64,000 bases of DNA. Origin: Candidatus Vogelbacteria bacterium RIFOXYD1_FULL_44_32. GTDB taxonomy: Bacteria; Patescibacteriota; Minisyncoccia; Phycocordibacterales; XYD1-FULL-46-19. The notes beneath the pieces are model-generated. The model did no database searches. It saw only the letters and a program-made list of their open reading frames with translations, and had not been told where the DNA came from. The stretch is taken from assembly GCA_001823065.1 (NCBI GenBank), contig MHTJ01000004.1, forward strand, positions 37,839 to 101,838, written 5' to 3'. A program made the translations under genes and the position numbers. Below, in pieces: positions 3,540-30,645 of this stretch (positions within the stretch are counted from its first letter, which is position 1; each line of letters opens with the position of its first letter).

Positions 3540-3604
3540 GTGGCTCTAAATATAGTTGAAGTTGCTATTTTGACGATGGTCTTTAGGTGTGTTATACTTG
3601 GCAG

Positions 3605-6385: not shown

Positions 6386-6426
6386 TTTTGTAGCTTTACT
6401 AGTTAAATTGATCTAAAATTATAACT

Positions 6427-6783
6427 ATGGAAAAAATACCAACAAATGAAATGAATAATGGGGAGGGAGGAATAGAAAAAGTAGAAACTAAAGTTGAAAA
6501 AGCCGATTTAATTAAAGCCTTAGCGGAGAAAGGATTGTCTGACCCAGAGACCCAGGAAATGCTTACCCGCTGGACCGAGGAGCAAGAAAAATATGTCGAG
6601 AGCCAACCTCGACCAGATGCAGAAATTAAATTTAATATTGATCGGGCTGATTTGTATATAGCTCTAAATGATGTAACAGGGGCGCTTGAATGTTTGGAAG
6701 ATGCTCGTGTACAAGCGTCTCAAGAAAGTCGAGATGACTTATACAATCAAATCTGTGACAAGATGGATGAAATAGAAAAGTAA
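6427..6783 (+). CDS. Hypothetical acidic protein
   Basis: Clean ORF in an intergenic gap with no recognisable motif. Confidence 0.45.
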   Translation: MEKIPTNEMNNGEGGIEKVETKVEKADLIKALAEKGLSDPETQEMLTRWTEEQEKYVESQPRPDAEIKFNIDRADLYIALNDVTGALECLEDARVQASQESRDDLYNQICDKMDEIEK

Positions 6784-6847
6784 AAAATAAAATATTTCGG
6801 ACCAGAGAGTATTTTTAAAAGTAAAAACCGTGTTATAATAGCGCCTC

Positions 6848-8305
6848 ATGGTAAACGACGGCTCCATTGTGCGTTTCGAAGGCGTGTTTTTTGAACACGG
6901 CCCCAACAAACCCATTCTCAAAGATGTGGGTTTTTCGGTTCGGCGGGGGGCCAAAGTTACCCTTATGGGTCAAAACGGGGCTGGTAAAAGCACTATCTTT
7001 GGTCTAATCACGGGGGCACTAACACCCGATAGTGGTGAGATAAATATCGCGACTCGTCTGACTATTGCCACGGCTCGCCAAGTTTTTCCGCGTGCGGAGC
7101 TAGACCTCACCTTGCGCGAGTTTTTTCAAAAACAATTTAAGGAAAAAATATATGATATAGACCCACGGATTGAGGCCGTACTAGAAGCGGTCAACCTCGA
7201 GGCTGACCACGACCGCCTAGTACGGTCCTTTTCTGGTGGCCAGCAAGCGCGACTTCTGCTCGCCTCGGCCCTTATCCAAGATCCCGACCTTTTGCTTTTA
7301 GATGAGCCGACAAATAATCTCGACCGAGCGGGGATCGAGCATCTCACCAATTTTTTGGTGAACTATAAAAAATCTTGCATTGTTATTTCCCATGATGCCG
7401 ACTTTTTAAATTCATTTACTCACGGCGTGCTTTATCTCGATGTTTATACCCATCAGATTGAGCAATATGTGGGTGACTATTTCGATGTGATGAAAGAAAT
7501 CAGTGTCCGGATTGAGAAAGAAAATATGAAGAACGCCCAACTAGCGAAGGAGGTGCAGGCCAACAAAGACAAAGCCAACTTTTTTGCCCAAAAGGGTGGC
7601 CGGATGCGCGTGGTGGCGAAAAAAATGCGAACTAAAGCCGAGGAGCTTGAAGAAGCCAAAGTTGATGTGCGCAAAGAAGACCGCACTATTCGGCCGTTTA
7701 CTATTCCCGCTCAACCTCCAGAGGAGCTGGCCGGTGAGGTCCTGGGTTTGACGGCTTATACTATTGTTAAAAAAAGTAAAACGGTTGATAAAAAAACTAA
7801 AATTTCTTTGCGCAAAAATCAGCATCTACTTTTGGCGGGGCCTAATGGGATTGGCAAAAGTACTCTGCTCGAGAAAATTGCGACTGGTACGGCTTATGGG
7901 GCGACGATTGCGCCCCAAGTAAAAGTGGGTTACTACCGTCAAGATTTTTCGACACTCAATTTTGAGGATACAGTTTTTCGGTCACTAATGTCGGCCATGG
8001 TTAAACCCGATGAAGAACATATGCGAGCAGTCGCTGCCGGGTTTCTTATTCGGGGCGAACTAATTGATACTAAAATTGGTCATTTGTCCGAAGGACAAAA
8101 GGGGTTAGTGGCTTTTGCTCGTTTGGTGCTAGAGCGGCCAGGACTTCTTATTTTAGATGAACCGACCAATCATATTAACTTTCGCCACTTGCCGGTGATT
8201 GCCAAGGCTTTAAGCCAATACGAAGGGGCGATGATTTTAGTAAGTCATGTGCCCGAGTTTGTGGCGCAGATAAGGATTGATGAGGTGTTGGATTTGGAAA
8301 AATAG
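6848..8305 (+). CDS. ABC-F family tandem-ATPase protein (no transmembrane domain)
   Basis: Two ABC cassettes: GQNGAGKST...LSGGQQARLLLA...LLLDEPTNNLD and GPNGIGKST...LSEGQKGLVAFA...LILDEPTNH. The start is leaderless-like, 9 nt after TGTTATAAT. Confidence 0.8.
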   Translation: MVNDGSIVRFEGVFFEHGPNKPILKDVGFSVRRGAKVTLMGQNGAGKSTIFGLITGALTPDSGEINIATRLTIATARQVFPRAELDLTLREFFQKQFKEKIYDIDPRIEAVLEAVNLEADHDRLVRSFSGGQQARLLLASALIQDPDLLLLDEPTNNLDRAGIEHLTNFLVNYKKSCIVISHDADFLNSFTHGVLYLDVYTHQIEQYVGDYFDVMKEISVRIEKENMKNAQLAKEVQANKDKANFFAQKGGRMRVVAKKMRTKAEELEEAKVDVRKEDRTIRPFTIPAQPPEELAGEVLGLTAYTIVKKSKTVDKKTKISLRKNQHLLLAGPNGIGKSTLLEKIATGTAYGATIAPQVKVGYYRQDFSTLNFEDTVFRSLMSAMVKPDEEHMRAVAAGFLIRGELIDTKIGHLSEGQKGLVAFARLVLERPGLLILDEPTNHINFRHLPVIAKALSQYEGAMILVSHVPEFVAQIRIDEVLDLEK

Positions 8306-8312: not shown

Positions 8313-8439
8313 GGAAATGTTTTTCGGCGAGCACACATAATTTTCTGCTGAAAATTTGCTCTGCTCGGGCCGCCCGCCTGCCATGCGAGGCACGAGCGGG
8401 CAGGTCGCCCTTGCGCAAGGCTCGGCGAAAAACATTTCC
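8313..8439. repeat. Structured intergenic repeat, family A copy 1 (conserved core enclosed by 20-bp inverted arms)
   Basis: Arms ggaaatgtttttcggcgagc (8313-8332) and gctcggcgaaaaacatttcc (8420-8439) enclose the core cacacataattttctgctgaaaatttgctctgctcgggccg...tcgcccttgcgcaagg. The same core is found at 17191-17250. Confidence 0.7.
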
Positions 8440-8811
8440 TCGCTTAGTTGGAATAGAAACTTATTTGACTCAAACAGATGAAGTTTCCTGTTCGTCTCAT
8501 TGATTTTTAAACTAGCTCCCACGAAAGCGCCAAAAGGTGAGGGTTCGTTGGGGTGATGGGAAGAAGGGGGGGATTAAATACAGTTAATGAAAAGGCCACC
8601 AACCCCCCAAAAAACGCCCTAGACCGGACGTTTTTTGGAGGCAAAATTACCTTGACAAAACAGCATTTTATGTGCTAGGAATGGGTGGTACTTTTGATCG
8701 TTGAAATAACTCCGACCAGCCTATCGCTGGGCGGAGAACCATATAGATAGAAGAAGGGAAGAAGGAAAGAAACAAAGTTTTCGCCGTGAGGCTAAAACAG
8801 GAGGAAGCGTC

Positions 8812-10956
8812 ATGAAGAAGAGTCTGTCGTCGCTGGCCACCCTGGTGGCATTTGTTACAGTTTTGTCGGGTTGTGTCGGGGGGTGTTGCGTGGCTTTCGT
8901 GTCGTGGACAGACGAGTTCACAGATGATGCCGGCCGCATCCTCTTTCCAGTGCAGGTGGACGAAGTCCAGGGTCAAGGTGGCAACACCATGGCCCAGGAG
9001 TCGGCCGAAGTTCGGCTCATGAGGGTCGATTCACAAGGACGTGCCTTTGAGGTGGCGTCCAAAGTGGATGTGACCTTTGGGTCGCTCGGAGATGTTGAGG
9101 CCTACCCGATTTACTCGGGTGCCAAAGGTGCCAAAGATCTCCTGCCGTATGGCTACGTCACTCCTGGTGGCGTGGTCATGCAGAATTTTGGCATCGGCGG
9201 ACACGCCGTGCCGGCGATGTCTGGACAATTCCAGATTGTGAGCTGGGCGAGCGTTGTGCAGGAACACCCAGGTGCCTTTATCGGCGCCGCGTTGGTTTTA
9301 CTAACAGATGTTGAGTTGGTCCGCCCCGATTTTGGCGGACGGCTTTCCGTCTTGTTTACGATCAGCCAGCCTGGGGATTACTTGATTGAGGTTGATGGTT
9401 TTGCCAGCCCGATTTTGGGGGGTAGAGTCATTAGCTTTCTTACTTGCAACTTCTCTTGGACCTCGGAGGTGTTCACCCTGAACCCGCCGGGAATTGAGCC
9501 AGATCGTGATGGCGATGGTGTGCCGGACAGCGAAGATAACTGTCCAGCCACTTGGAATCCTGATCAACAAGATTCCGACCATGACGGTATTGGTGACGCG
9601 TGTGAACGTGACACCGACGGTGACGGCATTTCCGATGATGAGGACAACTGTCCTTTCATCTCCAATCCAAATCAGCTTGATACAGATGGAGATGGTGTTG
9701 GGGATGTTTGTGATAATTCTTCTGGTGAAGGTGAAGGTGAAGGTGAAGGTGAAGGTGAAGGTGAAGGTGAAGGTGAAGGTGAAGGTGAAGGTGAAGGTGA
9801 AGGTGAAGGTGAAGGTGAAGAACTCACGCTCGACTTGTCGATTAAAGAAGGTGGCAACACTTTCGAAGTCGGCGAAGATTTCACGTTGAAGCTTGATATT
9901 GACGGGGCGACAGAGCCTTACAATGTCACATTGCGTGGAACTGGGGCGGAGTTCGTCGCCTTTCGTTTTGAAGACGGTGTCATAACCGTCACGGACCGAA
10001 TCTTGGCCAACGACGTCATCGGCGAGCCAGTGCTTGTTGGTAGCAATATCGAATTGAATTACTTGCCAAAGGTGACGACTGGCGGTGAGTTTGCTTCGAT
10101 TGAGGCCCAGGTAACGGATGCCCAAAGCAACCAAGCCCAGGACTCAGTTGATGTCAAAGTCGTCGTGGCGACCGGTATCGTTCCCAATGTCATCGACCTC
10201 CCTCAACAAGAAGGAGGGGATGATGTCGAAGGAGCCGGTTTTGTAGTTGGTACAATCACGACCCGTTGCAGTGACACCATTGCCGCTGGCCGGATTATCG
10301 ACTACAACCCCAAGGGTGTTCAGCCTTTGGGCACCGCCATTAATCTGGTGGTTTCCACCGGGCCCTGTGGACCGGAGATGACCACCGTGCCCAACGTGGT
10401 TGGTGACTTACTGGTGAATGCGGATGCCGAAATCACTGGTGCCAACCTCGAGGTCGGTAATGTGACGGAAGTCTTCAGTACCGCACCAGTCGGGCAGGTG
10501 ACAATCCAAAGTCCTGTCGGTGGGACGCAAGTGCCCGTCGGTAGTGCGGTGAACCTCACTGTTTCGAAAGGTGAGGAACCGGTGCCTGGGCCATTGGCGC
10601 TAGTTGTTACTTCGGCCGACGAAGATTTTCCCAATAGTTACCAAACTAACGGGACGATGACGTTCAGGGCCAAGATCAACGGCGACGTGCCCGCTCCGTA
10701 TACCGTGCGGTTCCGTGGGTTGCAGAGTGATCAAATTACCGTCACTCTCAATGTCGATGGGTCGGTGACGTTTGTCAGCCGTTCTGGCGGGGCGACGATC
10801 ACCTACGACAGACATCCTTCCGACCCCCGGTCGGTGATGTTTTCCCAGATGATCTTGTTTTCGACGCAGGGTCAGCCAGCTGGTCTCTACTTCCAAGCCG
10901 AGGCAGGCGGGCAAACCGCTGATGTTGGAAACATCTCCGTCGTCGTGACGGATTAG
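8812..10956 (+). CDS. Surface lipoprotein with thrombospondin-type-3-like Ca-binding repeats, (Gly-Glu)16 tract and PASTA/Ig-like C-terminal domains
   Basis: Lipobox signal [21 protein letters not shown] and an AGGAGG SD. Repeated DxDxDGxxDxxDNCP motifs, a (GE)16 tract, and VPNVVGDLL...-type repeats. Confidence 0.75.
9724..9819 (+). repeat. Perfect (GGTGAA)16 hexanucleotide microsatellite inside the lipoprotein gene
   Basis: Read directly as ggtgaa x16; it encodes (GE)16 in frame. Confidence 0.95.
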
Positions 10957-11008: not shown

Positions 11009-11157
11009 TCTAAAATGAGGTTACCATAACTACTTGCATTATTTTTCCATATGTGGTAGAAATACCCGGGTAAGCATTTACGCCTAAAATCCATTAAAAA
11101 GGGCGCGATTGCCAGTATAAGTCGATTTATTATAAATTTAAGTAAAATAGGCAAATT

Positions 11158-11784
11158 ATGACTATTCGTACTTTCGCAAAAGGAGCTCTTGTAGCAATGC
11201 TTGCTGTTGCGGTCATCGCGCCGTCGCTTGTACTTGCTGCCGCTCTTAATGTTCAGGTTACTACCCCTGCTAATAACGTAGTAGTGGGAGTAAATGAGAA
11301 TGTGTCTTTTGATGTGTCTGCAACCGGTGGGAACCCTGCTTCTTATGGTTACAGCTGGACTTTTGGTGATGGCCAAGGTGCTAACATCAAGAATCCAACT
11401 CACGCATATACATCTACTGGTACAACTACTGCCAGAGTTCAAGTGACTGATATCGCTGGTAATACTGGTGACGCCCAAGTTACCGTTGTTGTTACCGCCG
11501 GTGGTCCTTGCACCCCGCTGATTGTTGAGACTCCAGTTGAGGCCCAACCAAAAGCTACCAATGTTACCAAAGATAGTGCCACTATTGTTTGGACAACTTG
11601 TGAAGCTTCAACCAGCCGGGTTGTATATGACACTGTTTCTCATCCAACCGTAACTGATACTGCTAACCTAGGTTATGCAAACTCAACTACGATTGACAAC
11701 ACCAAAGTTACTACGCACTCGGTAAACTTGACTGGCCTTTCCGCCAACACCAAGTATTACTTCCGTGTTCTTTCGGCTCGCTAA
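11158..11784 (+). CDS. Secreted PKD-domain / fibronectin-III-like protein
   Basis: Signal peptide, then WTFGDGQGANIKNPTHAYTSTGTTTARVQVTD (PKD motif) and a TKYYFRV FN3-like C-terminus. Confidence 0.7.
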   Translation: MTIRTFAKGALVAMLAVAVIAPSLVLAAALNVQVTTPANNVVVGVNENVSFDVSATGGNPASYGYSWTFGDGQGANIKNPTHAYTSTGTTTARVQVTDIAGNTGDAQVTVVVTAGGPCTPLIVETPVEAQPKATNVTKDSATIVWTTCEASTSRVVYDTVSHPTVTDTANLGYANSTTIDNTKVTTHSVNLTGLSANTKYYFRVLSAR

Positions 11785-11816: not shown

Positions 11817-11852
11817 AAAACCCCCGCGGCCTACGGCCGCGGGGGTTTTTGG
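11817..11852 (+). terminator. Rho-independent terminator
   Basis: Hairpin aaaacccccgcggcc-tac-ggccgcgggggtttttgg. Confidence 0.85.
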
Positions 11853-11885
11853 TTACCCCAAACGCTGGTGTTATACTATTAATTC

Positions 11886-12839
11886 ATGCAGGCCAAATTG
11901 CTAAAAAAAATATTTCCCGAACTTAAAACTAAGGTAAAAATTGCTCCTTTTACCGCTTTTGACATTGGTGGAACTGCCCCATTTTGGCTAGAAATCAGAG
12001 ATAAACACAAGCTGGTCGAGGTCATAAAAAAAGCCCAGGCCAACCATTTACCTTATTTTGTCTTTGCGGGCGGGAGCAACCTGGTTTTTCCTGACAAATT
12101 GCCCAAAAAAATTTTCATTTGTTATCGCGCTAAACCTCGTGCGGGAGTTACTCATTTTATTGAGAGTAAGTTGGTTTATGCCGAGGCGGGCTTGCCGCTG
12201 GCGATTTTGGTTGGGGCGACAATTAAAAATGGGTTGGCTGGGTTCGAGGCCTTGTCGGGTATCCCGGGTACAGTTGGTGGAGCAATTTTTGGTAATGCTG
12301 GCGCTTATGGCCAGACTATTAGTGACAAGCTGGTTGAGATAGAAATTTTTGATGGCCAAGATATAAAGTGGGTACCAGTGGCAACTGGTCAGTTTAGTTA
12401 TCGCGCTAGTATCTTTAAGAAAAAAGATTGGCTTATTTTGGGTGGTCGGTGGAGTCTGGCCAAAGGTGAAGCAAAAACTCTTAACCAAAAATCACGAGAA
12501 ATTATAAAAATGCGAAATAAAAAATACGCGCCTGGTATCAAATGTCCTGGTAGCTATTTTAAAAATCTTTTAGCCAGCGATTTGCCTAAAAAGGTGCTCA
12601 AGCAAATTCCAGCGGAAAAAATAATTGGGGGCAAGGTACCAACTGGTTATCTACTAGAGGTGGTGGGGGTCAAGGGTCTTAAGCGGGGGAAAATTATGGT
12701 GCCTGACTATCACGCTAATCTTATTTTAAACACCGGTGGGGGTAAGGCGGTTGATGTCTTGGCGCTCGCTAATATTATGAAGCAAAAGGTCAAAGACCGT
12801 TTTAATATCAAAATTGAAGAAGAAGTTAGGGTGATATAA
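11886..12839 (+). CDS. murB: UDP-N-acetylenolpyruvoylglucosamine reductase
   Basis: FAD-binding PCMH-type N-terminus (FDIGGTAPFW...FAGGSNLVFPD) and LSGIPGTVGGAIFGNAGAYG. Confidence 0.85.
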   Translation: MQAKLLKKIFPELKTKVKIAPFTAFDIGGTAPFWLEIRDKHKLVEVIKKAQANHLPYFVFAGGSNLVFPDKLPKKIFICYRAKPRAGVTHFIESKLVYAEAGLPLAILVGATIKNGLAGFEALSGIPGTVGGAIFGNAGAYGQTISDKLVEIEIFDGQDIKWVPVATGQFSYRASIFKKKDWLILGGRWSLAKGEAKTLNQKSREIIKMRNKKYAPGIKCPGSYFKNLLASDLPKKVLKQIPAEKIIGGKVPTGYLLEVVGVKGLKRGKIMVPDYHANLILNTGGGKAVDVLALANIMKQKVKDRFNIKIEEEVRVI

Positions 12840-12884
12840 GCCAAATGACAAGCTGGGGTTTTTCGTCTATACTTGGCCTAATAT

Positions 12885-14300
12885 ATGACAGAATCTAAAT
12901 ATACTTTAACTGTGGGTCTCGAAATTCATGTCGAGTTAAAAACCAAAACCAAGATGTTTTGTGCTTGCCATAATGACCCCGACGAGAAAGAACCAAATGT
13001 TAATATTTGCCCGATTTGTACCGCCCAGCCGGGGACTCTGCCGGTTATTAATAAGGAAGCGGTTAAAAGTGTGCTGAGGGTGGGGACCGCCTTGGGCAGT
13101 AATCTGGCTGACTTTACCGAGTTTGACCGTAAAAACTATTTTTACCCGGATATTCCCAAGGCCTATCAGATTAGCCAATACAAATACCCGCTGGTGTCGG
13201 GAGGTTCGTTGCGAGGGGTAGAGATTACCCGGGTGCACCTAGAGGAGGATACGGCGAGTTCTCAACACGACCCGGCCAACGATTTATCAATGGTCAATTT
13301 TAACCGGGCGGGGGTACCGCTAATGGAGCTGGTCACCGAGCCGGTCATGCATAGTGCCAAAGAGGCGGGCGATTTTGCACGTGAATTACAACTCCTTTTA
13401 TCTCCGCTCTATTTAAATGTATCAGAGGCCAATATGGAAAAAGGCGAGATGCGGGTGGAGGCAAACATTTCTATTTCCGCTGACCCAAATACATTAGGTA
13501 CCAAAGTAGAAGTAAAAAATCTCAATTCGTTTCGGACGATGGAAAAAGCCATTGAATATGAATACAAACGCCAAGTGAAAATTTTAGACGAAGGTGGCCA
13601 AGTGGAACAAGAGACGCTAGGTTGGGACGAAAACAAACAAGCAACTTTTTCCCAACGCAAAAAAGAATCTTCGCACGACTATCGCTATTTTCCTGACCCC
13701 GATTTACCAAAACTTTATATTAGTGAAATTGCTGAATTTCAAAATCTAACTGAAACTTTACCGGAGTTGCCGAGTGAAAAAAGGGTTCGTTATGCCAAAG
13801 ACTATGGGGTGAAGAGTGAGGATGTTGAGGTATTTTTGGTGAATCAAAAATATGCCGAAGTTTTTGAAGGAACGGTGGCTAAGGTGGGCAAAGACAAGGC
13901 GCAACTAGTGGCCAATTATCTTACTTCCGACCTGGCTGGTTTACATAAAAATGGAGCCACTCTGGTACCGACAACCGAAGCCATGATTGAATTGATGGAA
14001 TTGATTTCGGCCGGCGAGATTTCTTCCCGCGGGGCGAAAGATATTTTGGCGGTGCTCGCCAAAGACGGTGGCGCCCCGCGGGCCATTGCCGAGACCAAAG
14101 GCCTATTCCAAAAAAGTGATGAGGGGGAAATTCTAAAAATTGTGGAGCAGGTAATTGCGGAAAACGAAACAGTAGTCGCCGATTATAAAGCCGGCAATGA
14201 GAAGTCCCTGCAATTTCTCGTCGGCCAAGGGATGAAGCTGTCGAAGGGCTCGGCTAATCCGGGAGTACTAACTAAAATACTTAAGGATAAATTAACATAA
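12885..14300 (+). CDS. gatB: Asp/Glu-tRNA amidotransferase subunit B
   Basis: N-terminal VGLEIHVELKTKTKMFCAC and a GatB/YqeY C-terminal region. Confidence 0.9.
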   Translation: MTESKYTLTVGLEIHVELKTKTKMFCACHNDPDEKEPNVNICPICTAQPGTLPVINKEAVKSVLRVGTALGSNLADFTEFDRKNYFYPDIPKAYQISQYKYPLVSGGSLRGVEITRVHLEEDTASSQHDPANDLSMVNFNRAGVPLMELVTEPVMHSAKEAGDFARELQLLLSPLYLNVSEANMEKGEMRVEANISISADPNTLGTKVEVKNLNSFRTMEKAIEYEYKRQVKILDEGGQVEQETLGWDENKQATFSQRKKESSHDYRYFPDPDLPKLYISEIAEFQNLTETLPELPSEKRVRYAKDYGVKSEDVEVFLVNQKYAEVFEGTVAKVGKDKAQLVANYLTSDLAGLHKNGATLVPTTEAMIELMELISAGEISSRGAKDILAVLAKDGGAPRAIAETKGLFQKSDEGEILKIVEQVIAENETVVADYKAGNEKSLQFLVGQGMKLSKGSANPGVLTKILKDKLT

Positions 14301-14841: not shown

Positions 14842-14983
14842 TATATGGCATATCAGACACCCATGTATAATGCTCCAGAAAATAATAAGACATATAACAT
14901 ATTACTTGTAATATTGGGTTTTATAACTATTTTAATCCCGATTGTTTTGTGGATACTTGATAAGTATTTGGTATAATAAATCT

Positions 14984-16003
14984 ATGCGTAAAACTAAAGT
15001 TGCTATCAACGGTTTAGGGCGGATTGGGCGTGCGTTTTTAAAGCTGGCTATCAAAAGACCGGAGATAGAAATAGTGGCGGTCAACGACTTGGGCGAGCTG
15101 GAAAACTTGGCTTATCTTTTAAAGTACGACAGTGCTTATGTCCGGTCGCGCCTAGATATCGATACTGCCGATGCTAATTTAAATATCGGTCCGCACGCGA
15201 TTAAATTTCTGCAAATTAAAGATCCGGCTCAGCTACCGTGGCGCGAGCTAGATATTGATGTCGTGGTCGAAGCAACGGGTGTCTTTGAAAGCTACGCCAA
15301 GTCCAAAGCGCACATTGATGCTGGGGCGCGCAAGGTAGTTATTTCCGCGCCGGTGAAAGACGAGCCACCAGTAGGCATACCCGGGGGCACTGTTTTAATG
15401 GGAGTCAATGATGAAAAATTAGCGAGTTGTCAGATTACCTCCAATGCCTCCTGCACGACCAACTCGGCTAGTCCCCTGATTGCGATTTTAAATGAGAAAA
15501 TTGGGATTGAAAAAGCTTTACTCAATACTGTTCACGGCTACACCGCCAGTCAGTCGCTGGTGGATGCACCCATGAAAGGCGACTGGCGGCGGGGTCGCGC
15601 GGCCGCTCATAATATTGTCCCGTCTTCCACGGGAGCGGCGGTCGCGGTGACCCAGGTGGTAACCGATCTGAAAGACAAGTTTGATGGTATCGCGATGAGG
15701 GTACCAGTCATTACTGGTTCACTAGTGGACATCACCTTTATTGCCAAAAGAAAAACTAGTGTGGAAGAAATAAATAATTTGCTTAAAGCCGGGGCGGAGG
15801 AAGGGCGTTGGCAAGATATTTTTATGGTGACCGAGGAACCTTTGGTTTCCTCAGATATTGCGGGCAATACTCACGCCTCGATTGCTGATCTATCTTTTAC
15901 CCGCGTGGTGGGGGGCAATTTGTGCAAGGTGCTCGCTTGGTATGACAATGAAATGGGGTATGCCAACACTTTAGTCGAGCATGTAATTAAAACGGGAAAA
16001 TAA
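14984..16003 (+). CDS. gap: Glyceraldehyde-3-phosphate dehydrogenase
   Basis: KVAINGLGRIGR NAD-binding motif and the active-site stretch SNASCTTNS. Start taken at MRKTKV, 6 nt after TGgTATAAT (leaderless). Confidence 0.9.
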   Translation: MRKTKVAINGLGRIGRAFLKLAIKRPEIEIVAVNDLGELENLAYLLKYDSAYVRSRLDIDTADANLNIGPHAIKFLQIKDPAQLPWRELDIDVVVEATGVFESYAKSKAHIDAGARKVVISAPVKDEPPVGIPGGTVLMGVNDEKLASCQITSNASCTTNSASPLIAILNEKIGIEKALLNTVHGYTASQSLVDAPMKGDWRRGRAAAHNIVPSSTGAAVAVTQVVTDLKDKFDGIAMRVPVITGSLVDITFIAKRKTSVEEINNLLKAGAEEGRWQDIFMVTEEPLVSSDIAGNTHASIADLSFTRVVGGNLCKVLAWYDNEMGYANTLVEHVIKTGK

Positions 16004-16527
16004 TGGCAGATTTAATTAATGATATGGAGTTGGGAGTGTCTGAAAATCAAATAGCAAAAACCGTTCTGTTGGCGACTGACCATGCTGGGTTTGAACTAAA
16101 AGAAAAAATCAAAAGTTTTTTGCGGGCCAATAATTTTGTCGTCGAAGATTTGGGTGCTTTTAGTATGGACGAGACCGACGACTATCCGGTGTATGTGCAT
16201 ATGGCGGGGAAAAGGGTTAGTGCCGAACCGGAAAAATATGTGGCCATAATTTTTGGTGGCTCGGGCCAAGGGGAGGCCATTGTGGCCAACCGCTACAAAA
16301 ATGTGCGAGCAGTGGTGTGTTACGAGATTAAAGAAGATATTGTCAAAATTGCGCGCGAGCACAACGATGCCAATGTCTTGTCGCTCGGTTCACGGTTTGG
16401 GCTCGACGAGGACGAGGCCAAAGAGGCGGTGCTCAAGTTTTTGACCACCCCTTTTTCGGGGGATAAGAGGCATATGAGGCGGATTGCCCAAATTGACAGT
16501 GAACCACGGAGTGAAAATTCTTTTTAA
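16003..16527 (+). CDS. rpiB: Ribose-5-phosphate isomerase B
   Basis: RpiB/LacAB-family motifs TDHAGFELKEKI and GGSGQGEAIVANR. Confidence 0.85.
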   Translation: MADLINDMELGVSENQIAKTVLLATDHAGFELKEKIKSFLRANNFVVEDLGAFSMDETDDYPVYVHMAGKRVSAEPEKYVAIIFGGSGQGEAIVANRYKNVRAVVCYEIKEDIVKIAREHNDANVLSLGSRFGLDEDEAKEAVLKFLTTPFSGDKRHMRRIAQIDSEPRSENSF

Positions 16528-17168: not shown

Positions 17169-17275
17169 GAACGCCAGAAGTTAATTTTCATCACACACAT
17201 AATTTTCTGCTGAAAATTTGCTCTGCTCGGGCCGTCGCCCTTGCGCAAGGTTCTGAAAATTAACTTCTGGCGTTC
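17169..17275. repeat. Structured intergenic repeat, family A copy 2 (same core, different perfect 22-bp inverted arms)
   Basis: Arms gaacgccagaagttaattttca (17169-17190) and its exact reverse complement (17254-17275) enclose the family-A core. Confidence 0.7.
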
Positions 17276-17409: not shown

Positions 17410-18279
17410 ATGCAAACCCTCACTGACGACAAGAAAAAATTATTAGCCGAAAAAGCTGGCGACATCCGCCGGTCGGTTATTGAGATGTTGGTGCAAGCGG
17501 GTTCAGGCCACACCGCGGGACCACTGGGGATGGCGGATATTTTTACTGCATTATATTTTCATGTTTTAGAACACGAACCAAGAAACCCCAGCTGGAGCGA
17601 GCGGGACCGGCTGGTGCTGTCCAATGGCCATATTTGTCCGGTGTATTACGCCACTTTGGCGCACGCTGGCTATTTTCCCGTGGAGGAACTGAAAACTTTA
17701 CGTCAGTTTGGGTCACGCTTGCAGGGGCACCCCCACCGCGAATATTTGCCTTATGTGGAGACTAGCTCTGGTCCCTTGGGGTCGGGGCTGTCGCAGGCTT
17801 GTGGTATGGCGCTCGCGGAGAAAATGGATCATGGCCAAAATTCCAACAAATATATTTATTGCCTAATGTCCGACGGCGAGTTGCAAGAAGGCAACACGTG
17901 GGAGGCGGTGCTCTTTGCCGGCAAACAGAAATTTTCTAATCTAATCGTTATTATTGACCGCAACAATATTCAGATTGATGGTTTTACGGAAGACATTATG
18001 CCGCTGGAACCCTTGGCCGAAAAATTTAGCGCATTTAATTGGCATGTCATAGAAATTGATGGTCACAACTTCGACGACATTATCTCGGCGGTGGGCGAGG
18101 GGCAAGCGGTATTTGGCCGGCCGGTGGTGATAATTGCTCACACCACGCCGGGCAAAGGTGTACCGGCTTTTGAGAAAAAGTACGAGTGGCATGGTAAACC
18201 ACCAACCAAAGAGGAGGGGGAGATGGCGTTAAAAGAATTGCGGACATTAGGAGGTAAAATTAAAAGTGAAAATGATTGA
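17410..18279 (+). CDS. Transketolase, N-terminal subunit (split transketolase)
   Basis: Thiamine-diphosphate-binding motifs GSGHTAGPLGMADIF and SNGH. Confidence 0.85.
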   Translation: MQTLTDDKKKLLAEKAGDIRRSVIEMLVQAGSGHTAGPLGMADIFTALYFHVLEHEPRNPSWSERDRLVLSNGHICPVYYATLAHAGYFPVEELKTLRQFGSRLQGHPHREYLPYVETSSGPLGSGLSQACGMALAEKMDHGQNSNKYIYCLMSDGELQEGNTWEAVLFAGKQKFSNLIVIIDRNNIQIDGFTEDIMPLEPLAEKFSAFNWHVIEIDGHNFDDIISAVGEGQAVFGRPVVIIAHTTPGKGVPAFEKKYEWHGKPPTKEEGEMALKELRTLGGKIKSEND

Positions 18280-18943
18280 TATGGAAAATAACTTTCAACA
18301 TTTTCCACTGACCGAAAAGCTTCACACTGATGTTTTGGAAGAAAAATATGGGCCAGTTAGAGCCGAGGTTTTAAGGCATGATAATGAAATTAGAGAAGTA
18401 CATATTGTTGATGAAAGTGGAGTGTCTAGGACTTATGCCCTTACTTTTTTAACTTTTGATAAAAATAATAAGGAAATAGCTGAAATTGATCAGGAAATAA
18501 AAAATGGAGGACTAATTGGTAAGACTTTTCGTGACCATGGTTATGAAATTAGAAAGAATGTTATTCACGTCTACACTGTGGAATTGCCTGATTGGCTTAA
18601 ATCTAGATTTGAAAATGAATCAAACGAAGCTAAAGCTCGACTGTCGGAATTTTATGCTAAAAAGAAAGATGAATCACCGCTAATTTATGGTATTGTAACT
18701 GAAATATATAGTCCAGATTTTAGAGAACCTGAAATAAATAACATTGATACTAAACAAGATAATCCTTCTACCAACGCTTTTGAGTTGGTGGGTATAACAA
18801 AAGGCGAGATTTGGGACAGGATTGGCGATGGTAATTTGTGGAGCGGTTTGCAAGAAAAATTAGACCGAGCCAAAGAATTGGCGAAAACTGAAGAAAATAA
18901 TTTGGCGGAGCGGGTGGCAAGATATTTAAATAAAGATAATTAA
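18266..18943 (+). CDS. Hypothetical protein inserted between the two transketolase subunit genes
   Basis: AT-rich ORF with no recognised motif. Its start overlaps the tkt-N stop by 14 nt and its stop abuts the tkt-C start. Confidence 0.55.
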   Translation: MKMIDMENNFQHFPLTEKLHTDVLEEKYGPVRAEVLRHDNEIREVHIVDESGVSRTYALTFLTFDKNNKEIAEIDQEIKNGGLIGKTFRDHGYEIRKNVIHVYTVELPDWLKSRFENESNEAKARLSEFYAKKKDESPLIYGIVTEIYSPDFREPEINNIDTKQDNPSTNAFELVGITKGEIWDRIGDGNLWSGLQEKLDRAKELAKTEENNLAERVARYLNKDN

Positions 18944-18944: not shown

Positions 18945-19940
18945 ATGTTAAATACTTCCCAAAAACTAAACCCAAAACTTTTTGACCTCAATGTGGAGCA
19001 GGTGCCTATTCGTGACGGGTTTGGGCAGGGGTTGGTGGAAGCGGGCGAGAAAAACGAGCAAGTAGTGGCGCTGTGTGCCGACCTTGTTGAGTCCACACGC
19101 ATCGAAAAATTTGCCAAACAGTTTCCCGAGCGATTTGTGGAAATGGGGGTGGCTGAACAAAACTTGGTGACGGTCGCTTCGGGGCTCGCTTCGATGGGCA
19201 AAATCCCTTTTACCGCCTCGTACGCTTGTTTTTCGCCAGGGCGCAACTGGGAACAGATTCGTACGACCATTACCTACAACGATGTACCGGTGAAAATTGT
19301 GGGGGCTCATGCTGGTATCTCGGTTGGCCCCGATGGGGGCACCCACCAAATGCTTGAAGACATTGCCCTAATGCGGGTGTTACCCAATATGGTGGTGGTG
19401 GTGCCGTGCGACAGTGTGGAAGCCAAGAAGGCGACACTCGCAATAGCGGAAAATGGTAAACCTAGCTATATACGCCTCGCTCGCAACAAGTCGGCTGTGG
19501 TTACTACCGCCACGTCGCCGTTTGAAGTGGGGAAAGCTAATGTGCTAGTTGACCCGGATCGGGCCGAAGTGGCGGTGATTGCTTGTGGGCAAATGGTCTA
19601 CTATGCCCTAATGGCGGCGCGCCAACTGGAGGCCGAGGGGATAAAAGTCTCGGTGACCAATTTGCATACTATTAAGCCACTAGACATGGAAACTATTCAC
19701 CGCGTCGCCGCCAACTCGGGCGCGGTGGTGACAGTCGAGGAACACCAAGTGGTTGGTGGGATGGGGAGCGCGGTGGCGGAAAGTTTGGCAAAAACTTTTC
19801 CGGTGCCGATAGAGTTTCTCGGGGTGCAAGATAAATATGGCCAGTCGGGCGAGCCAGGCGAACTTTTGGAGCACTATGGTTTGGGGGTGAAAGATATTGT
19901 TGGGGCCGTGAAGAAAGTCATAGGACGGAAGAAACGGTAG
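18945..19940 (+). CDS. Transketolase, C-terminal subunit
   Basis: Transketolase pyrimidine-binding domain FVEMGVAEQNLVTVASGLA. Confidence 0.85.
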   Translation: MLNTSQKLNPKLFDLNVEQVPIRDGFGQGLVEAGEKNEQVVALCADLVESTRIEKFAKQFPERFVEMGVAEQNLVTVASGLASMGKIPFTASYACFSPGRNWEQIRTTITYNDVPVKIVGAHAGISVGPDGGTHQMLEDIALMRVLPNMVVVVPCDSVEAKKATLAIAENGKPSYIRLARNKSAVVTTATSPFEVGKANVLVDPDRAEVAVIACGQMVYYALMAARQLEAEGIKVSVTNLHTIKPLDMETIHRVAANSGAVVTVEEHQVVGGMGSAVAESLAKTFPVPIEFLGVQDKYGQSGEPGELLEHYGLGVKDIVGAVKKVIGRKKR

Positions 19941-19989
19941 ACATTTTGAGAGTTATTGCTATATTAAAAATAGAGAAAAGGAGGTGCGT

Positions 19990-20088
19990 ATGGGCCGTTT
20001 TAAAACAAGGGATTGGCTGGTGGCGGTGATTTTTGGAACGGTACTTTTTTTGTGTATTTTTGTTTCCGTTTACATTTTGGTTCGCTAG
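19990..20088 (+). CDS. Small hydrophobic protein (32 aa) with strong SD
   Basis: AAGGAGG 5 nt upstream of the ATG. Translation MGRFKTRDWLVAVIFGTVLFLCIFVSVYILVR. A strong terminator follows. Confidence 0.4.
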   Translation: MGRFKTRDWLVAVIFGTVLFLCIFVSVYILVR

Positions 20089-20112
20089 CGAATCAGAAAA
20101 CTGGCGGTGATA

Positions 20113-20170
20113 GCGCGGGCAAGGTTGGATGGCGGGTGCGCCATCCAACCTTGCCCGCGCTTTTTTGTTT
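20113..20170 (+). terminator. Rho-independent terminator (long GC hairpin + T tract)
   Basis: Hairpin gcgcgggcaaggttggatggcgggtgcgccatccaaccttgcccgcgc followed by ttttttg. Confidence 0.85.
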
Positions 20171-20195
20171 TGGTTATAAATAGTATAATTTTGAT

Positions 20196-21077
20196 ATGAA
20201 AAAAATCCTTATTATTGGGGGCGGGGAAATAGGCCAAGCCCTCGCCCAGCTTCTATTGGTTCACGAGCCAGTGATTTTTGATAAAGATGAAACTAAAAAT
20301 AAGGCCGGTCGGCCTTTAGCCGAATTATTAGCGGAAGCGGCCATTGTTTTTCTGGCGGTTCCAACTCAGGCCTTAGCGTCGGTTGGCAAGGAGATATCTT
20401 CGCATCTAAAAACCGAAGCTGTGGTCGTTTCTGTTTCTAAAGGCGCTAGTGCCAACGGAAATTTTTCTTTCGAAATTTTAGCCGAAGTATTACCCAATAA
20501 CCCGTTGGTGTTTATGGGTGGGCCGATGCTCGCTGCAGAAATTAAGGCGGGTAAAAAAGCGGGGGCCACCCTTGGTAGTGAATCAGCCGAGGCTCGTCTG
20601 GTGGTACGGGAGATTTTTGCCCACTCCAATCTGTTACTCAAAGAGTCGGATGATGCCACTGGGGTGGCCTTGGCTGGATTGTTAAAAAATTTTTATGCTT
20701 TGGGCCTGGCGGTAGCCGAAGAAGTTGGGGTCGGTGCCAATACTAAAGGGGCTTTAGTGGCCTCGGCCTTGGCTGAAATTACCGAGCTTTTGGTGTCATT
20801 TGGGGGTAAGGCCGAAACCGCTTATTCTTTAGCTGGTCTAGGCGACCTGGTGGCCACTGCTTCCAGTGAACATAGTCGCAATCGGACTGCTGGTCGCGAC
20901 CTAGTGAGGATTGGTAAATGTCCTATCGAAAGTGAGGGTAGCCTAGCCTTGCCTCTAGTTTGGCCACGGCTAGAAAGCAAGTTGGCGGGCATGCCATTTT
21001 TGGCAGCCATTGGCGAGGTGGTAGTCCACGGTAAAAATCCAAAAAATGTTTTTGAAAATATTCTCGAGAGGCTCTAA
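20196..21077 (+). CDS. gpsA: NAD(P)H-dependent glycerol-3-phosphate dehydrogenase
   Basis: IIGGGEIGQAL NAD-binding motif and the GpsA signature LAGLGDLVATASSEHSRNR. Confidence 0.75.
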   Translation: MKKILIIGGGEIGQALAQLLLVHEPVIFDKDETKNKAGRPLAELLAEAAIVFLAVPTQALASVGKEISSHLKTEAVVVSVSKGASANGNFSFEILAEVLPNNPLVFMGGPMLAAEIKAGKKAGATLGSESAEARLVVREIFAHSNLLLKESDDATGVALAGLLKNFYALGLAVAEEVGVGANTKGALVASALAEITELLVSFGGKAETAYSLAGLGDLVATASSEHSRNRTAGRDLVRIGKCPIESEGSLALPLVWPRLESKLAGMPFLAAIGEVVVHGKNPKNVFENILERL

Positions 21078-22297: not shown

Positions 22298-22458
22298 TCT
22301 CGTGGGCGACGCCAGCAATGCCGCAACGTGCTGGGATGCTCCCTCCTTGTTTGTCGCCCACGAGAACCTTTGGCCACCTTTCCCTATCCGGAAGAGAGGA
22401 CTTGCTGGTTTTACCCCATTCCAGCTCCTTACTCTCTTTCGGATAGGGGTTTTATTTT
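22298..22458 (+). terminator. Two nested long inverted repeats downstream of glpK, the second ending in a T tract
   Basis: Inverted repeat tctcgtgggcgac/gtcgcccacgaga (22298-22365), and ccctatccggaagagag/ctctctttcggataggg (22382-22449) followed by ttttatttt. Confidence 0.5.
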
Positions 22459-22463
22459 GCCTA

Positions 22464-22491
22464 TTGACAAAAAAGTAGGGGGTGCTATAAT
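22464..22491 (+). promoter_or_regulatory. Consensus sigma70-type promoter (TTGACA-16nt-TATAAT)
   Basis: TTGACA at 22464-22469 and TATAAT at 22486-22491. Confidence 0.6.
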
Positions 22492-22497
22492 GGGGAT

Positions 22498-22790
22498 TGA
22501 ACAAGTGAATGACCAACTGACGGAAGGAGGTGATGTCTATGTTGGCCACGAAGTCCCTTGAACATTATTTTGATATGAAGACGACGGCAACCACCGCCAC
22601 GGCCTGACCGGCCATCGGCGCGCGCCCCAACAAACCGGGCATAGGGCCCGGGGAGGAATACCCATGAACATTCGGCGTCCGCGCGACTCAGCCGGCTAGG
22701 TACTCTAGCCATCTGCGTCGCAAATAAATTTGCCGTCCCCCGACCACGTGCCTTTATGGCAATCGCGCACGGGGGGCGGCTTTTCTTTTA
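22498..22790 (+). ncRNA. Candidate ~290-nt GC-rich transcript (promoter to terminator), possibly dual-function with a micro-ORF
   Basis: The unit starts at a consensus promoter and ends at the hairpin gccgtccccc...ggggggcggc plus a T tract (22732-22790). It is GC-rich with several internal hairpins and contains no long ORF. Confidence 0.3.
22539..22607 (+). CDS. SD-led 22-codon micro-ORF (MLATKSLEHYFDMKTTATTATA)
   Basis: AGGAGG at 22525-22530, 8 nt before the ATG at 22539; TGA stop at 22605. Confidence 0.25.
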   Translation: MLATKSLEHYFDMKTTATTATA

Positions 22791-23783
22791 CAATTTTTTA
22801 GGAGCGTAATCAGCTGGAGCTTCAGCTAAATATTTTTCAATTTTTTCTTTGGTCAAAAGGCCAGATTGGGCACCAACAGATTGCACTACTGACATCGAGT
22901 TTATCGGCGCGCGCTTGAGCGCCTCCGGGACACTCATTCCTAAAGCAATAAAAGAAGTAAAGGTCGAGGCAAAAGCGTCACCGGCTCCCGTGCGACTTAT
23001 TGGTGATTTTGGGTCGGGGTAAATTGGCATTTGCCACATGTCGGTACCGTCAAAAGTGTAGGCGCCATTTGGCCCGTCAGTCAGACCCACTATTTTGGGA
23101 CCCAAATTTTTAATGCTGGTCAATAGATTTTTCACATCAGTCTCGTCTGGAGTTTTTAATATTCGCCGTGCTTCTTCTAGGTTGCAGACAAATATTTCGG
23201 TCCGAGCAAAAATATCGGGCAGTTTATCTGGGCCCAAATTTATTTGAAAAGTCCCTGGTTGAAAGGCTAATTTGGTTTCGGGGTGAGCCAAAAGCCAGGT
23301 CGCCAACTGGTGGTGAAAATCAAGCGAGTTTTCACCTAGCGAGCTAAGGTAAATCCAGCGCGGGTTGCCAATATCCGGCAAACTATAATCATATTTTTCG
23401 TGCTTAATTAAAATAGTCCGTTCGGCGCCATACCACAAAACATAATGATAATTGGTTTTTTGGCCGGCATTGGTTTTTACCAAATCAGTCGCGACATTTT
23501 CCTTAGCTAAACTTGCTAGGGCTTCTTTACCTTCGTCGTCATCACCAATATTAGTCAGAAGACCAGTAGTAAGGCCCAGACGGGAAGCCGAGACAGCGGC
23601 ATTGGGCGAATTGCCGACCGCAGGCACAATGGTGACCGACTCGTAGGGGATTTTGTCACCGAAAGCCAGACAGATTTTGCAATTGTCTTTATTAATATCA
23701 CAATTGACCTCGGCCTCTTGCAGTTTAATAAAAGCATCAGTAGTAATATCGCCAATTGCTAAAATGTCTAGTTTTTTATTCAT
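22788..23783 (-). CDS. PfkB-family carbohydrate kinase (ribokinase-like)
   Basis: LDILAIGDITTD N-terminal motif and the GAGDAF anion hole. Start chosen at MNKKLD, which has an upstream TATAAT and AAAGG. Confidence 0.8.
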   Translation of the reverse strand: MNKKLDILAIGDITTDAFIKLQEAEVNCDINKDNCKICLAFGDKIPYESVTIVPAVGNSPNAAVSASRLGLTTGLLTNIGDDDEGKEALASLAKENVATDLVKTNAGQKTNYHYVLWYGAERTILIKHEKYDYSLPDIGNPRWIYLSSLGENSLDFHHQLATWLLAHPETKLAFQPGTFQINLGPDKLPDIFARTEIFVCNLEEARRILKTPDETDVKNLLTSIKNLGPKIVGLTDGPNGAYTFDGTDMWQMPIYPDPKSPISRTGAGDAFASTFTSFIALGMSVPEALKRAPINSMSVVQSVGAQSGLLTKEKIEKYLAEAPADYAPKKL

Positions 23784-23819
23784 TTCTAAATTATACCTTT
23801 CTCTGTAATTATTCCCAAA

Positions 23820-24554
23820 AATATTGGACACCGAGTGTCCAATATTTTAAACTTATGATAATGAGAAAGATAAAAATTTGTGAGGGGGAGTATTATCACA
23901 TTTACAATCGTGGAGTAGATAAAAAAGACATTTTTATTGATAAACGAGATTACGCCCGGTTCTTATTTTGTGTTTTGTTTTTCCAATCGCCACTTTCATT
24001 AGTTAATCCTCCCTCCTATATTAATTATTTTATTGGACACTCGGTGTTCAATATTTCTCAAAAAATTAAAAAACAAATAATTAGTGATAAGTATGTTGAG
24101 TTGGTGTCTTTTATATTTATGCCCAATCATTTCCATTTAATTGTTAAGGAAAAGGTGGCAGGGGGAATTTCTCAATATATGCAAAGAATTCAAAATTCTT
24201 TTACAAAATATTTTAATACAAAATATAAAAAGAATGGGCATTTATTTCAGGGGCCATATCAAATTGTTTATATTGAAGATGATGAACAGTTACTTTATTT
24301 ATCATCATATATACATCGGAATTGTCGGGTACTTAATGGTTGGAAGAATAAGGAGGAAAAGTATCCGTGGTCAAGCTACTCTGATTTTTTAGGCCCAAAT
24401 CGGTTTGGTGGTCTATTAGAACCAGAAATTATTATGTCCGAATTTAATAATGCTGGTGATTATAAAATAGAGGTTCAAAACAGTGGCGCCAAAGAGATAA
24501 TTGAAGATTTATTAATTGATAATTGATAATATTGGACACTCGGTGTCCAATATT
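23820..24554 (+). mobile_element. IS200/IS605-family (or RAYT-like) element with 27-bp palindromic termini
   Basis: aatattggacaccgagtgtccaatatt at 23820-23846 and its reverse complement at 24528-24554 flank a HuH tyrosine-transposase ORF. Confidence 0.7.
23855..24526 (+). CDS. tnpA: IS200-like HuH tyrosine transposase (TnpA / REP-associated-like)
   Basis: HIYNRG, HuH motif MPNHFHLIV and catalytic-Tyr motif YIHRN. Start taken at MIMRKIKI. Confidence 0.75.
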   Translation: MIMRKIKICEGEYYHIYNRGVDKKDIFIDKRDYARFLFCVLFFQSPLSLVNPPSYINYFIGHSVFNISQKIKKQIISDKYVELVSFIFMPNHFHLIVKEKVAGGISQYMQRIQNSFTKYFNTKYKKNGHLFQGPYQIVYIEDDEQLLYLSSYIHRNCRVLNGWKNKEEKYPWSSYSDFLGPNRFGGLLEPEIIMSEFNNAGDYKIEVQNSGAKEIIEDLLIDN

Positions 24555-24601
24555 TTGTTTTTCTAGAGAAGATGTAAAGTCTTTATGGTAGAATAGGAGG
24601 A

Positions 24602-27121: not shown

Positions 27122-27170
27122 CAGAAATAGCCTTGCATATTTTTGAAATTTCTTATATATTGTCTCCGTT

Positions 27171-27846: not shown

Positions 27847-27885
27847 AAACCCCCAGCGGCGCTTCGCGCCGCTGGGGGTTTTTTG
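27847..27885 (+). terminator. Rho-independent terminator
   Basis: Hairpin aaaacccccagcggcgcttcgcgccgctgggggtttttt. Confidence 0.9.
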
Positions 27886-27898
27886 CTATAATGTAATT

Positions 27899-29224: not shown

Positions 29225-29245
29225 TCGTGTGTTAAACTCAAACCC

Positions 29246-29515
29246 ATGCAAAAAGACATCCACCCTACTTACTATCCGGATGCGAAAGTGACCTGCGCTT
29301 GCGGGAATTCTTTTACGGTGGGTTCAACTAAAGAAACCATTAGCGTGGAAGTTTGTGCCGCTTGTCACCCCTTTTTCACTGGTAATGAAAAAGTGATGGA
29401 TACGGCTGGCCGAGTGGAAAAATTCAAGGCTCGAGCCAAACAAGCGACCGCTCCTAAAAACAAAAAGACGGCGACCAAAAAAAAGGAGACCAAGCAGGCT
29501 GAAACAGAAGCTTAA
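29246..29515 (+). CDS. rpmE: 50S ribosomal protein L31
   Basis: [10 protein letters not shown]...CACGN...[10 protein letters not shown]. Confidence 0.9.
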
Positions 29516-30592: not shown

Positions 30593-30645
30593 TTTGGGGT
30601 CTAAATATTGCCAATTTCCCTGATATTTGTTAGACTACTTGCCGT

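Follow-up and report, generated by a model that had tools for sequence, protein, structure and literature searches.

Start-codon-proximal -10 boxes and scarce Shine-Dalgarno sites suggest leaderless expression of first genes in a Paceibacteria genome

We analyzed a 64,000-nucleotide (nt) stretch of the genome of Candidatus Vogelbacteria bacterium RIFOXYD1_FULL_44_32 (contig MHTJ01000004.1, positions 37,839 to 101,838), hereafter the window, in which a promoter -10 hexamer lies a few nucleotides before the start codon of many genes and Shine-Dalgarno (SD) sequences are rare. This architecture is probably that of leaderless first genes, translationally coupled internal genes and a few SD-led open reading frames (ORFs). 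The source organism is an ultra-small groundwater bacterium of the Parcubacteria/Paceibacteria, in the candidate phyla radiation (CPR). Exact protein matches put the window on a 495-kb scaffold of a metagenome assembly (ENA ERZ28563784, ANAN16-1, scaffold_3, at approximately 63,969-127,968), and two of the proteins are assigned by NCBI to RIFOXYD1_FULL_44_32. The window has 41-50% GC and contains one tRNA-Gln and one tRNA-Thr, and an Rfam scan of its whole length found no family beyond these two tRNAs.

Under this reading, leaderless mRNA would be the default for the first gene of a transcription unit. A sigma-70-type holoenzyme would recognize an extended -10 element (TGnTAtAaT), largely or wholly without the help of a -35 element, transcription would start approximately 7 nt past the hexamer, i.e., at the A of the ATG, and the resulting 5'-AUG transcript would be bound directly by the ribosome, without SD:anti-SD pairing. 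The downstream genes of the operon, at stop-to-start distances of -4 to approximately +9 nt, would be expressed without an SD or a promoter of their own. Stand-alone, lineage-specific small ORFs and one surface lipoprotein would instead have the classical layout, in which a -35/-10 promoter is followed by a leader with a strong SD. The transcription start position, the loading of the ribosome at the 5' AUG and the coupling mechanism are what we infer; the architecture, its statistics and its conservation across some 75 related genomes are the observations.

Proximal -10 boxes in the window

Fifty-nine genes had been called independently in a public collection. After conversion of their coordinates to the window, 58 were used; the one set aside is the caller's 373-amino-acid (aa) start of a PASTA protein, which is internal to a 714-aa ORF starting at 8812. 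Each start was scored for its best -10 hexamer (E. coli-type position weight matrix [PWM], at least 5 bits) and for SD complementarity.

The clearest case is the gap gene, which codes for GAPDH (339 aa; Pfam Gp_dh_N/Gp_dh_C in the independent gene calls).

14969-14986, + strand, gap: TGgTATAAT-6-ATG (PWM scoring, promoter scan, orthologues)

The TG (T14969, G14970) and one g precede TATAAT (14972-14977), and the 6-nt spacer aaatct leads to the ATG at 14984. A promoter scan independently lists this site with its TG. The -10 hexamer of sigma-70 promoters occupies -12 to -7, and with a 6-nt spacer the predicted +1 is therefore the A of the ATG. The earlier note on this DNA had described exactly this motif without an SD, and its coordinates proved exact. 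In 55 of 68 gap orthologues a strong -10 lies 5-12 nt before the ATG of the respective gene, at exactly 6 nt in 26, and none (0/68) has an SD-like tetramer. The remaining upstream sequence is not conserved and the N termini, which agree with the assigned starts, differ in length, yet the box is kept at the ATG. Conservation of the spacer in these orthologues and in other gene families argues for selection on the start-codon-proximal position itself.

In the window as a whole, 21 of the 58 genes carry a -10 at a spacer of 6-9 nt, compared with 3.8±1.9 in mononucleotide shuffles (maximum 16 in 2000), in agreement with the earlier claim that such starts are pervasive; control spacer windows of 16-19 and 26-29 nt gave 5 and 4 genes. 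The number rises to 27/58 for spacers of 5-11 nt, and 11 of these 27 have the extended -10 TG one base before the hexamer. At the -35 position of the boxes, matches to TTGACA are mostly 2-4 of 6. For an unbiased set of first-ATG starts, TAnnnT was counted 10, 5, 7 and 7 times at spacers 6, 7, 8 and 9, as opposed to approximately once at internal or random ATGs. Between 19 and 24 of the 47 genes with an upstream gap of at least 20 nt carry a box. SD tetramers and pentamers at window starts are at chance level, with essentially none in genes of at least 100 aa; the G frequency at -12 to -1 is merely 0.06-0.16, and T at -1 reaches 0.59.

All 13 genes previously named as -10-proximal were verified by start scoring, with spacers of 6 nt (gap, rnhB, gpsA, M32 peptidase, lytic transglycosylase), 7 nt (pheS, rpmE, NUDIX), 8 nt (murB, prfA, ABC-F at 6848), 9 nt (rpsB) and 10 nt (tsf). 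A second ABC-F gene (55546) has a weak box only. The starts of this type other than gap are as follows, identified by start scoring unless other evidence is given in parentheses.

1228-1246, + strand, NUDIX: TGcTAAACT-7-ATG
3590-3607, + strand, M32 peptidase: TGtTATACT-6-ATG, TTGACG at the -35 position (start scoring, promoter scan)
6414-6429, + strand, hyp118: TAAAAT-7-ATG
6831-6850, + strand, ABC-F: TGtTATAAT-8-ATG
11143-11160, + strand, PKD-domain protein: TAAAAT-9-ATG
11869-11888, + strand, murB: TGtTATACT-8-ATG (start scoring; bidirectional terminator 11817-11849, ending 36 nt upstream)
12868-12887, + strand, gatB: TATACT-11-ATG, possibly a 4-5 nt leader (start scoring, orthologues)
20184-20198, + strand, gpsA: TATAAT-6-ATG (terminator 20113-20166, ending approximately 30 nt upstream)
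23781-23798, - strand, pfkB, probable true start ATG 23783: GgTATAAT-6-ATG (gene-call comparison)
23848-23863, + strand, Y1 transposase: TAAACT-7-ATG
24586-24604, + strand, fba: TGgTAGAAT-7-ATG, AGGAGGA filling the spacer and touching the ATG (start scoring, orthologues; terminator 24528-24566 upstream)
27156-27173, + strand, rplY (L25): TATATT-9-ATG (start scoring, orthologues)
27884-27901, + strand, lytic transglycosylase (SLT): TGcTATAAT-6-ATG (terminator 27857-27884, its T-tract abutting the TG)
29230-29248, + strand, rpmE (L31): TGtTAAACT-7-ATG
29577-29593, + strand, prfA: TATAAT-8-ATG
30628-30648, + strand, rpsB: TGtTAGACT-9-ATG
31423-31441, + strand, tsf: TATAAT-10-ATG
32882-32897, + strand, pheS: TATACT-7-ATG (terminator 32836-32878, ending approximately 16 nt upstream)
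44484-44501, - strand, class II aminoacyl-tRNA synthetase (582 aa), ATG 44486: TGtTATTAT-6-ATG
49029-49046, + strand, rnhB: TGgTAGAAT-6-ATG
49703-49718, + strand, rpmF (L32): TATAGT-7-ATG
52267-52283, + strand, smc: TATACT-8-ATG (terminator 52193-52230, ending approximately 50 nt upstream)
59694-59714, - strand, rnr (RNase R), ATG 59696: TGcTATACT-9-ATG
59742-59761, + strand, rpsP (S16): TGcTACGAT-8-ATG
60809-60828, + strand, trmD: TGtTATTGT-8-ATG, a weaker hexamer (4.3 bits)

Strong intrinsic terminators end 14-50 nt before the ATG of six of these genes, murB, gpsA, SLT, pheS, smc and fba. Their transcripts would have to start in the short interval between terminator and ATG, and the proximal -10 is the sole -10 available there. 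For the M32 peptidase, the Pfam M32 profile begins at residue 9 counted from the ATG at 3605.

Two of the starts differ from earlier assignments. The earlier note had placed fba among the SD-led genes, a claim that does not hold. Its AGGAGGA touches the ATG directly, at a spacing of 0-1 nt that is too short for an SD, and the ATG is preceded by TGgTAGAAT at a distance of 7 nt. The -10 is present in 22 of 24 fba orthologues and an SD in none; fba belongs with the leaderless-type starts. For pfkB, the called start, GTG 23831, lies inside the left hairpin of an IS200-type element, which makes ATG 23783 the likelier start. Copies of this hairpin, TTGGACAC-NNN-GTGTCCAA, at 23824-23842 and 24532-24550 flank the Y1_Tnp gene at 23861-24526 (IS200/IS605-type), and a further copy is found inside the transposase gene at 24033-24051.

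Conservation, promoter anatomy and alternative readings

For comparison, we collected the 75 closest gap loci of a species-level genome collection (1,051 ORFs of 120 aa or longer in 1.27 Mb). They were drawn from the best 80 among over 585 matches, with a best identity of 67%. All are metagenome-assembled genomes (MAGs) of Parcubacteria/Paceibacteria/Patescibacteria, at 55-67% amino-acid identity. Two Bacillaceae loci processed identically served as a positive control for SD. The -10 of these 75 loci has a sharp maximum at spacer 6, at 15.7 per 100 genes over a background of approximately 1.5-2.5, with a shoulder at 7-9, and SD-like tetramers are flat at background (4% of genes at 4-11 nt). 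The Bacillaceae control gave 55% SD and a -10 peak of 0%. The earlier note had presented proximal boxes as a mode of this genome; they are indeed present here, but they are not special to it, being common to the Paceibacteria loci examined.

The boxes have a preference for the first genes of units. First-in-unit genes are boxed in 238 of 651 cases (37%) and operon-internal genes in 43 of 298 (14%), with control values of 6% and 4%. SD-like tetramers are at background in both groups (37/651 first and 15/298 internal genes). Orthologues of genes that head units in the window carry the box often (gatB 13/14, at 5-10 nt; fba 22/24; L25 19/22; dnaE 5/5; tktN 29/54), as opposed to those of window-internal genes (tktC 2/46; rpe 11/58).

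When the 238 first-in-unit sites were aligned on the hexamer, T at -15 (0.61) and G at -14 (0.67) stood out, neither of which had been selected for. T-12, A-11 and T-7 are invariant, and the -35 region is weak, with T at 0.53 only. RNA polymerase prefers a pyrimidine at -1 and a purine at +1 of the transcript, and a pyrimidine directly precedes the ATG in 99 of 120 spacer-6 cases. The box is also specific to the first ATG (31.8%, versus 1-9% at GTG, TTG and unrelated codons), which fits the known dependence of leaderless translation on a 5' AUG. The sharp spacer, the unselected TG, the pyrimidine before the ATG, the ATG specificity, the first-gene bias, the conservation and the upstream terminators together support the view that the -10-proximal starts behave as promoters, and are neither noise from base composition nor AU-rich sites of ribosome binding.

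Several points weigh against a leaderless interpretation. Leaderlessness is read here from DNA alone, and gene starts in the 75 loci were set by a first-ATG rule rather than by curated annotation. Only 36-50% of the window genes have a box, and approximately 15, dnaE, gyrB, tktN, rpoB, nusB and ABC-F_2 among them, have neither a proximal -10 nor an SD. Spacers of 10-11 nt, found at tsf, gatB, ddl, Cyt-b5 and a 672-aa ORF, more likely give leaders of 3-5 nt than none. The boxes of rpmE, rpmF and tsf lie only 15-28 nt past the preceding same-strand gene, and these three genes may also be read from longer transcripts.

The last point also speaks for an alternative in which the proximal boxes are secondary, most mRNA coming from upstream promoters or read-through and the leaders being translated independently of SD. 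The gap orthologues of four loci (L003, L006, L009 and L012), whose only good -10 is approximately 20-30 nt upstream, are in line with it. Strong intrinsic terminators, however, part many boxed genes from the upstream unit, and the exact spacer is kept across the 68 gap orthologues and other families. We regard this mixed origin of the transcripts as improbable.

Slightly less probable still is that the TAnnnT/AU-rich motif works in the RNA, marking a non-SD ribosome-binding site or an unstructured leader on mRNAs with ordinary leaders, as in group B (Bacteroidota) of GeneMarkS-2. SD at background for first and internal genes alike, as in group B, would be expected in that case; the upstream regions are A/T-rich, and the 14% of boxed internal genes exceed the 4% of the control window. 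Yet TG at -15/-14, the invariant hexamer positions, a weak -35 T and the Y/R step at -1/+1 are promoter features, and the spacer peak at exactly 6 nt is the canonical distance from -10 to transcription start. The motif is 2.6 times commoner at first than at internal genes, whereas group B has it equally at both (PMC6028130), and terminators stand directly upstream of six boxed starts.

That the peak is an artefact of AT-rich composition, of in-frame stops (TAA/TAG) before the first ATG or of mis-called starts is most improbable and was rejected: TATAAT at spacer 8 and TAA/TAG hexamers at spacer 6 do create in-frame stops, and removing such hexamers lowers the counts at spacers 6 and 8, but the peak survives the removal (124 and 67 hits are left at spacers 6 and 7, over a background of approximately 7-19, i.e., still 5-10 times above it), shuffles and other spacer windows give 4-5 genes rather than 21, independent gene calls and gap orthologue N termini agree, and the Bacillaceae control has no peak.

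Genes without a proximal box

The leaderless reading of first genes leaves a third class, which the earlier scheme of two expression modes had not named, although both of its modes survive testing. Approximately 10 operon-internal window genes have neither a -10 nor an SD and lie -1 to +7 nt from the preceding stop.

16003-16005, + strand, rpiB: ATG overlapping the gap stop (TAATG), neither SD nor -10
2247, 16533, 18945, 25472, 31901, 33605, 50941 and probably 18281: further starts of this class

In the clade, same-strand intergenic gaps peak at -4 and +1. The close packing of stop and start makes termination-reinitiation probable, and these genes are presumably translated by coupling, through termination-reinitiation or 70S scanning. 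Loci with few boxes might have been thought to use SD instead. This idea was rejected: there is no anticorrelation, and among the 55 loci with at least 12 genes (27-57% GC) none exceeds 24% by a crude SD measure that gives 55% for the Bacillaceae.

For hyp225, we considered an SD-led start at 18266 and rejected it, as the starts of at least 345 homologues correspond to ATG 18281, 1 base past the tktN stop (TGA-T-ATG, coupling to tktN); the AGGAGGT 25 nt upstream is therefore probably mere Gly-Gly coding sequence. The product of 18266-18943 belongs to a conserved family of approximately 215 aa without a Pfam domain, with at least 345 homologues in Parcubacteria and DPANN archaea (Woesearchaeota, Nanoarchaeota). 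It lies between the halves of a split transketolase (tktN, tktC), which are directly adjacent in most related loci.

SD-led starts form a minority. A site was counted as strong if AGGAGG, AAGGAG or GGAGGT occurred in non-coding sequence 4-10 nt ahead of a start codon that opens an ORF of 20 codons or more. The window has nine such sites, compared with 1.5±1.2 in shuffles, and six are credible.

8799-10956, + strand, lipoprotein: AGGAGG (8799)-7-ATG 8812, 714 aa, TSP_3 and PASTA domains
19938-20166, + strand, mini-cistron: TAGACA-16-TGcTATATT, AAGGAGGTG (19978), ATG 19990, 32-aa hydrophobic ORF, 20-bp terminator
22464-22790, + strand, mini-cistron: exact TTGACA-16-TATAAT, AAGGAGGTGAT (22524), ATG 22539, 22-aa ORF, GC-rich tail, terminator
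34997-35509, + strand, mini-cistron: exact TTGACA-16-TATAAT, approximately 119-nt leader, AAGGAGGT (35137), TTG 35150, 108-aa membrane ORFan
51843-52230, + strand, mini-cistron: exact TTGACA-16-TATAAT, approximately 57-nt leader, AAGGAG (51921), ATG 51934, 81-aa ORFan, terminator
57359-57555, - strand: AAGGAG (57555-57550)-8-ATG 57541, 60-aa ORF

All six of these SD-led ORFs named earlier (19990, 22539, 35150, 51934, 57541 on the - strand and the lipoprotein at 8812) are present as described. The SD at 35150 depends on a TTG start, gene callers taking ATG 35219. Three exact TTGACA-N16-TATAAT promoters were found in the window (at 22464, 34997 and 51843), with 0.05 expected, and each copy precedes an SD-led ORF, as the earlier note had remarked for several of them; the predicted leaders are approximately 41-119 nt long. 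Four of the six credible units have their own terminator and are self-contained mini-cistrons.

The SD-led ORFs are small or lineage-specific, consistent with their earlier description as small or accessory. The six credible ones and a weaker candidate at 32633 have no homologues in the 75 loci, and the small ones gave no match in Pfam. The two searched in a 5.8-billion-protein database, hyp81 and orf108, matched only themselves. The 75 loci contain 70 SD sites, with 25.4±4.8 expected, at a lower density than the window and with a median ORF of 64 codons; they also contain eight exact consensus promoters, with 1.25 expected, two of which have an SD-led ORF behind them. The SD-led ORFan mini-cistrons with perfect promoters are a small unexplained class.

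The sequence AAGGAGGTGAT at 22524 is complementary over 11 nt to the canonical 3' tail of 16S rRNA. A search of the window and of 86 related loci for the 3' end of a 16S rRNA gene found none; retention of the anti-SD in this organism is suggested by AAGGAGGTGAT and the other SD-like sites only, a further point against our interpretation. The unit at 22464-22790 is predicted to give a transcript of approximately 300 nt. Its 22-aa ORF is Thr/Ala-rich (MLATKSLEHYFDMKTTATTATA), its GC-rich tail has a fold z of -2.5, and it converges on pfkB, with no gene behind it. The unit may represent a small RNA or something akin to a leader peptide; an Rfam search of 22300-22850 matched no family in this GC-rich transcript.

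Within the lipoprotein ORF (8812-10956), a GGTGAA (Gly-Glu) tandem repeat spans 9688-9831. Between 8305 and 11158, the ENA scaffold (ERZ28563784) exceeds the window by 113 nt, probably at this repeat, and the public gene call of the ORF starts internally (373 instead of 714 aa). A 48-nt repeat, 94% identical, occurs at 8332-8379 and 17194-17241, in each case within an intergenic region of unusual length. The first copy precedes the SD-led lipoprotein gene (8812), and the second precedes tktN (17410), which has no proximal -10 or SD.

Other elements were noted in the window. A GC-rich intergenic element of approximately 180-200 nt is present in three copies, 70-90% identical, after gyrB (42005-42182), rnc (51691-51810) and smc (54510-54688). 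A perfect palindrome, ATCGCCACACCTCT/AGAGGTGTGGCGAT, is present in two of them, those that begin at 42005 and 54510, and the whole-window scan found no Rfam family for the element. A 65-nt repeat, 86% identical, lies at 34805-34869, in the 3' end of pheT, and at 37589-37653, covering the 3' end of the 672-aa polyprenyl-synthase-like ORF and the next spacer. The FGGY kinase ORF, taken from its longest-ORF start (21046), shares 32 nt with the 3' end of gpsA (21046-21077) and has no recognized signal; its true start may be further downstream.

Relation to known systems and significance

Genomes dominated by leaderless genes are well known in Actinobacteria, Deinococcus-Thermus and archaea. In group C of GeneMarkS-2, a Pribnow box lies 6-8 nt from the starts of first-in-operon genes in 25-50% of operons (PMC6028130). 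This group is typical of Actinobacteria and Deinococcus-Thermus (PMC6028130), is found in some Mycoplasma (bioRxiv 10.1101/2022.07.25.500264) and includes Mycobacterium tuberculosis, Streptomyces, Corynebacterium and D. deserti. The present loci resemble it in the position of the box, approximately 6-8 nt before first genes, in the share of units, approximately 25-50%, and in the dependence of the starts on ATG. They differ in that the remaining and internal genes of group C use SD, whereas here SD stays at approximately 5% background for first and internal genes. Moreover, code-11 members of group C are almost all high-GC, as opposed to 27-57% GC here, and the promoters here are mostly extended -10 with a weak -35. 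Paceibacteria and CPR are absent from the main texts of both papers (PMC6028130; bioRxiv 10.1101/2022.07.25.500264).

With extended -10 (TGn) sigma-70 promoters, the sites share a TG one base before the TAtAaT hexamer and a dispensable -35; the TG of such promoters is contacted by sigma region 3.0. Unlike usual extended -10 promoters, those described here are the majority type and are placed such that the predicted +1 coincides with the start codon. As in group B (Bacteroidota/FCB), SD is hardly used although SD-led sites imply a ribosomal anti-SD. Group B, however, has an RNA-level motif on leadered mRNAs, equal at first and internal genes, in contrast with the promoter anatomy and preference for first genes (37% versus 14%) found here.

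Tsurumaki et al. (2022, RNA 28:1041, PMC9297842) detected CCTCCT in just 48% of the 16S genes of Parcubacteria and reported that bS21 is frequently missing and bS1 short. Anti-SD loss, the absence of bS21 and a short bS1 are consistent with little use of SD. That study gives no alternative route of initiation and does not contain the word 'leaderless'; it describes the function of the conserved 16S helix h26 as unknown and the connection of anti-SD loss with the loss of uL1 as unclear (PMC9297842). Unlike the anti-SD-less Parcubacteria (PMC9297842), the present genome seemingly keeps a canonical anti-SD, with up to 11 nt of perfect complementarity. Full-text searches found no paper on leaderless expression in CPR, Patescibacteria, Parcubacteria or Saccharibacteria; most subscription journals are outside their coverage, and a prior mention is possible. 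What we describe is a known architecture in a lineage for which no report was found, with the twist that SD use is near nil even within operons.

We lean, by a modest degree, toward the view that Paceibacteria have nearly abandoned SD-based initiation. Leaderless initiation and SD-independent reinitiation would be the normal modes, which would explain the losses of anti-SD and bS21, and the classical mode would persist only in genome-specific mini-cistrons. The latter may represent a separately regulated or recently gained class of genes.

If confirmed, these findings would provide a concrete answer to how translation starts in Parcubacteria that lack an anti-SD. Start-codon choice in thousands of CPR MAGs would need a promoter-at-start model in place of an SD model; the pfkB GTG called within a transposon hairpin is an example. 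They would also guide the choice of promoter and start architecture for expressing CPR genes and for building CPR genetics, and would bring a deep-branching lineage with a reduced ribosome into the debate on ancestral leaderless initiation.

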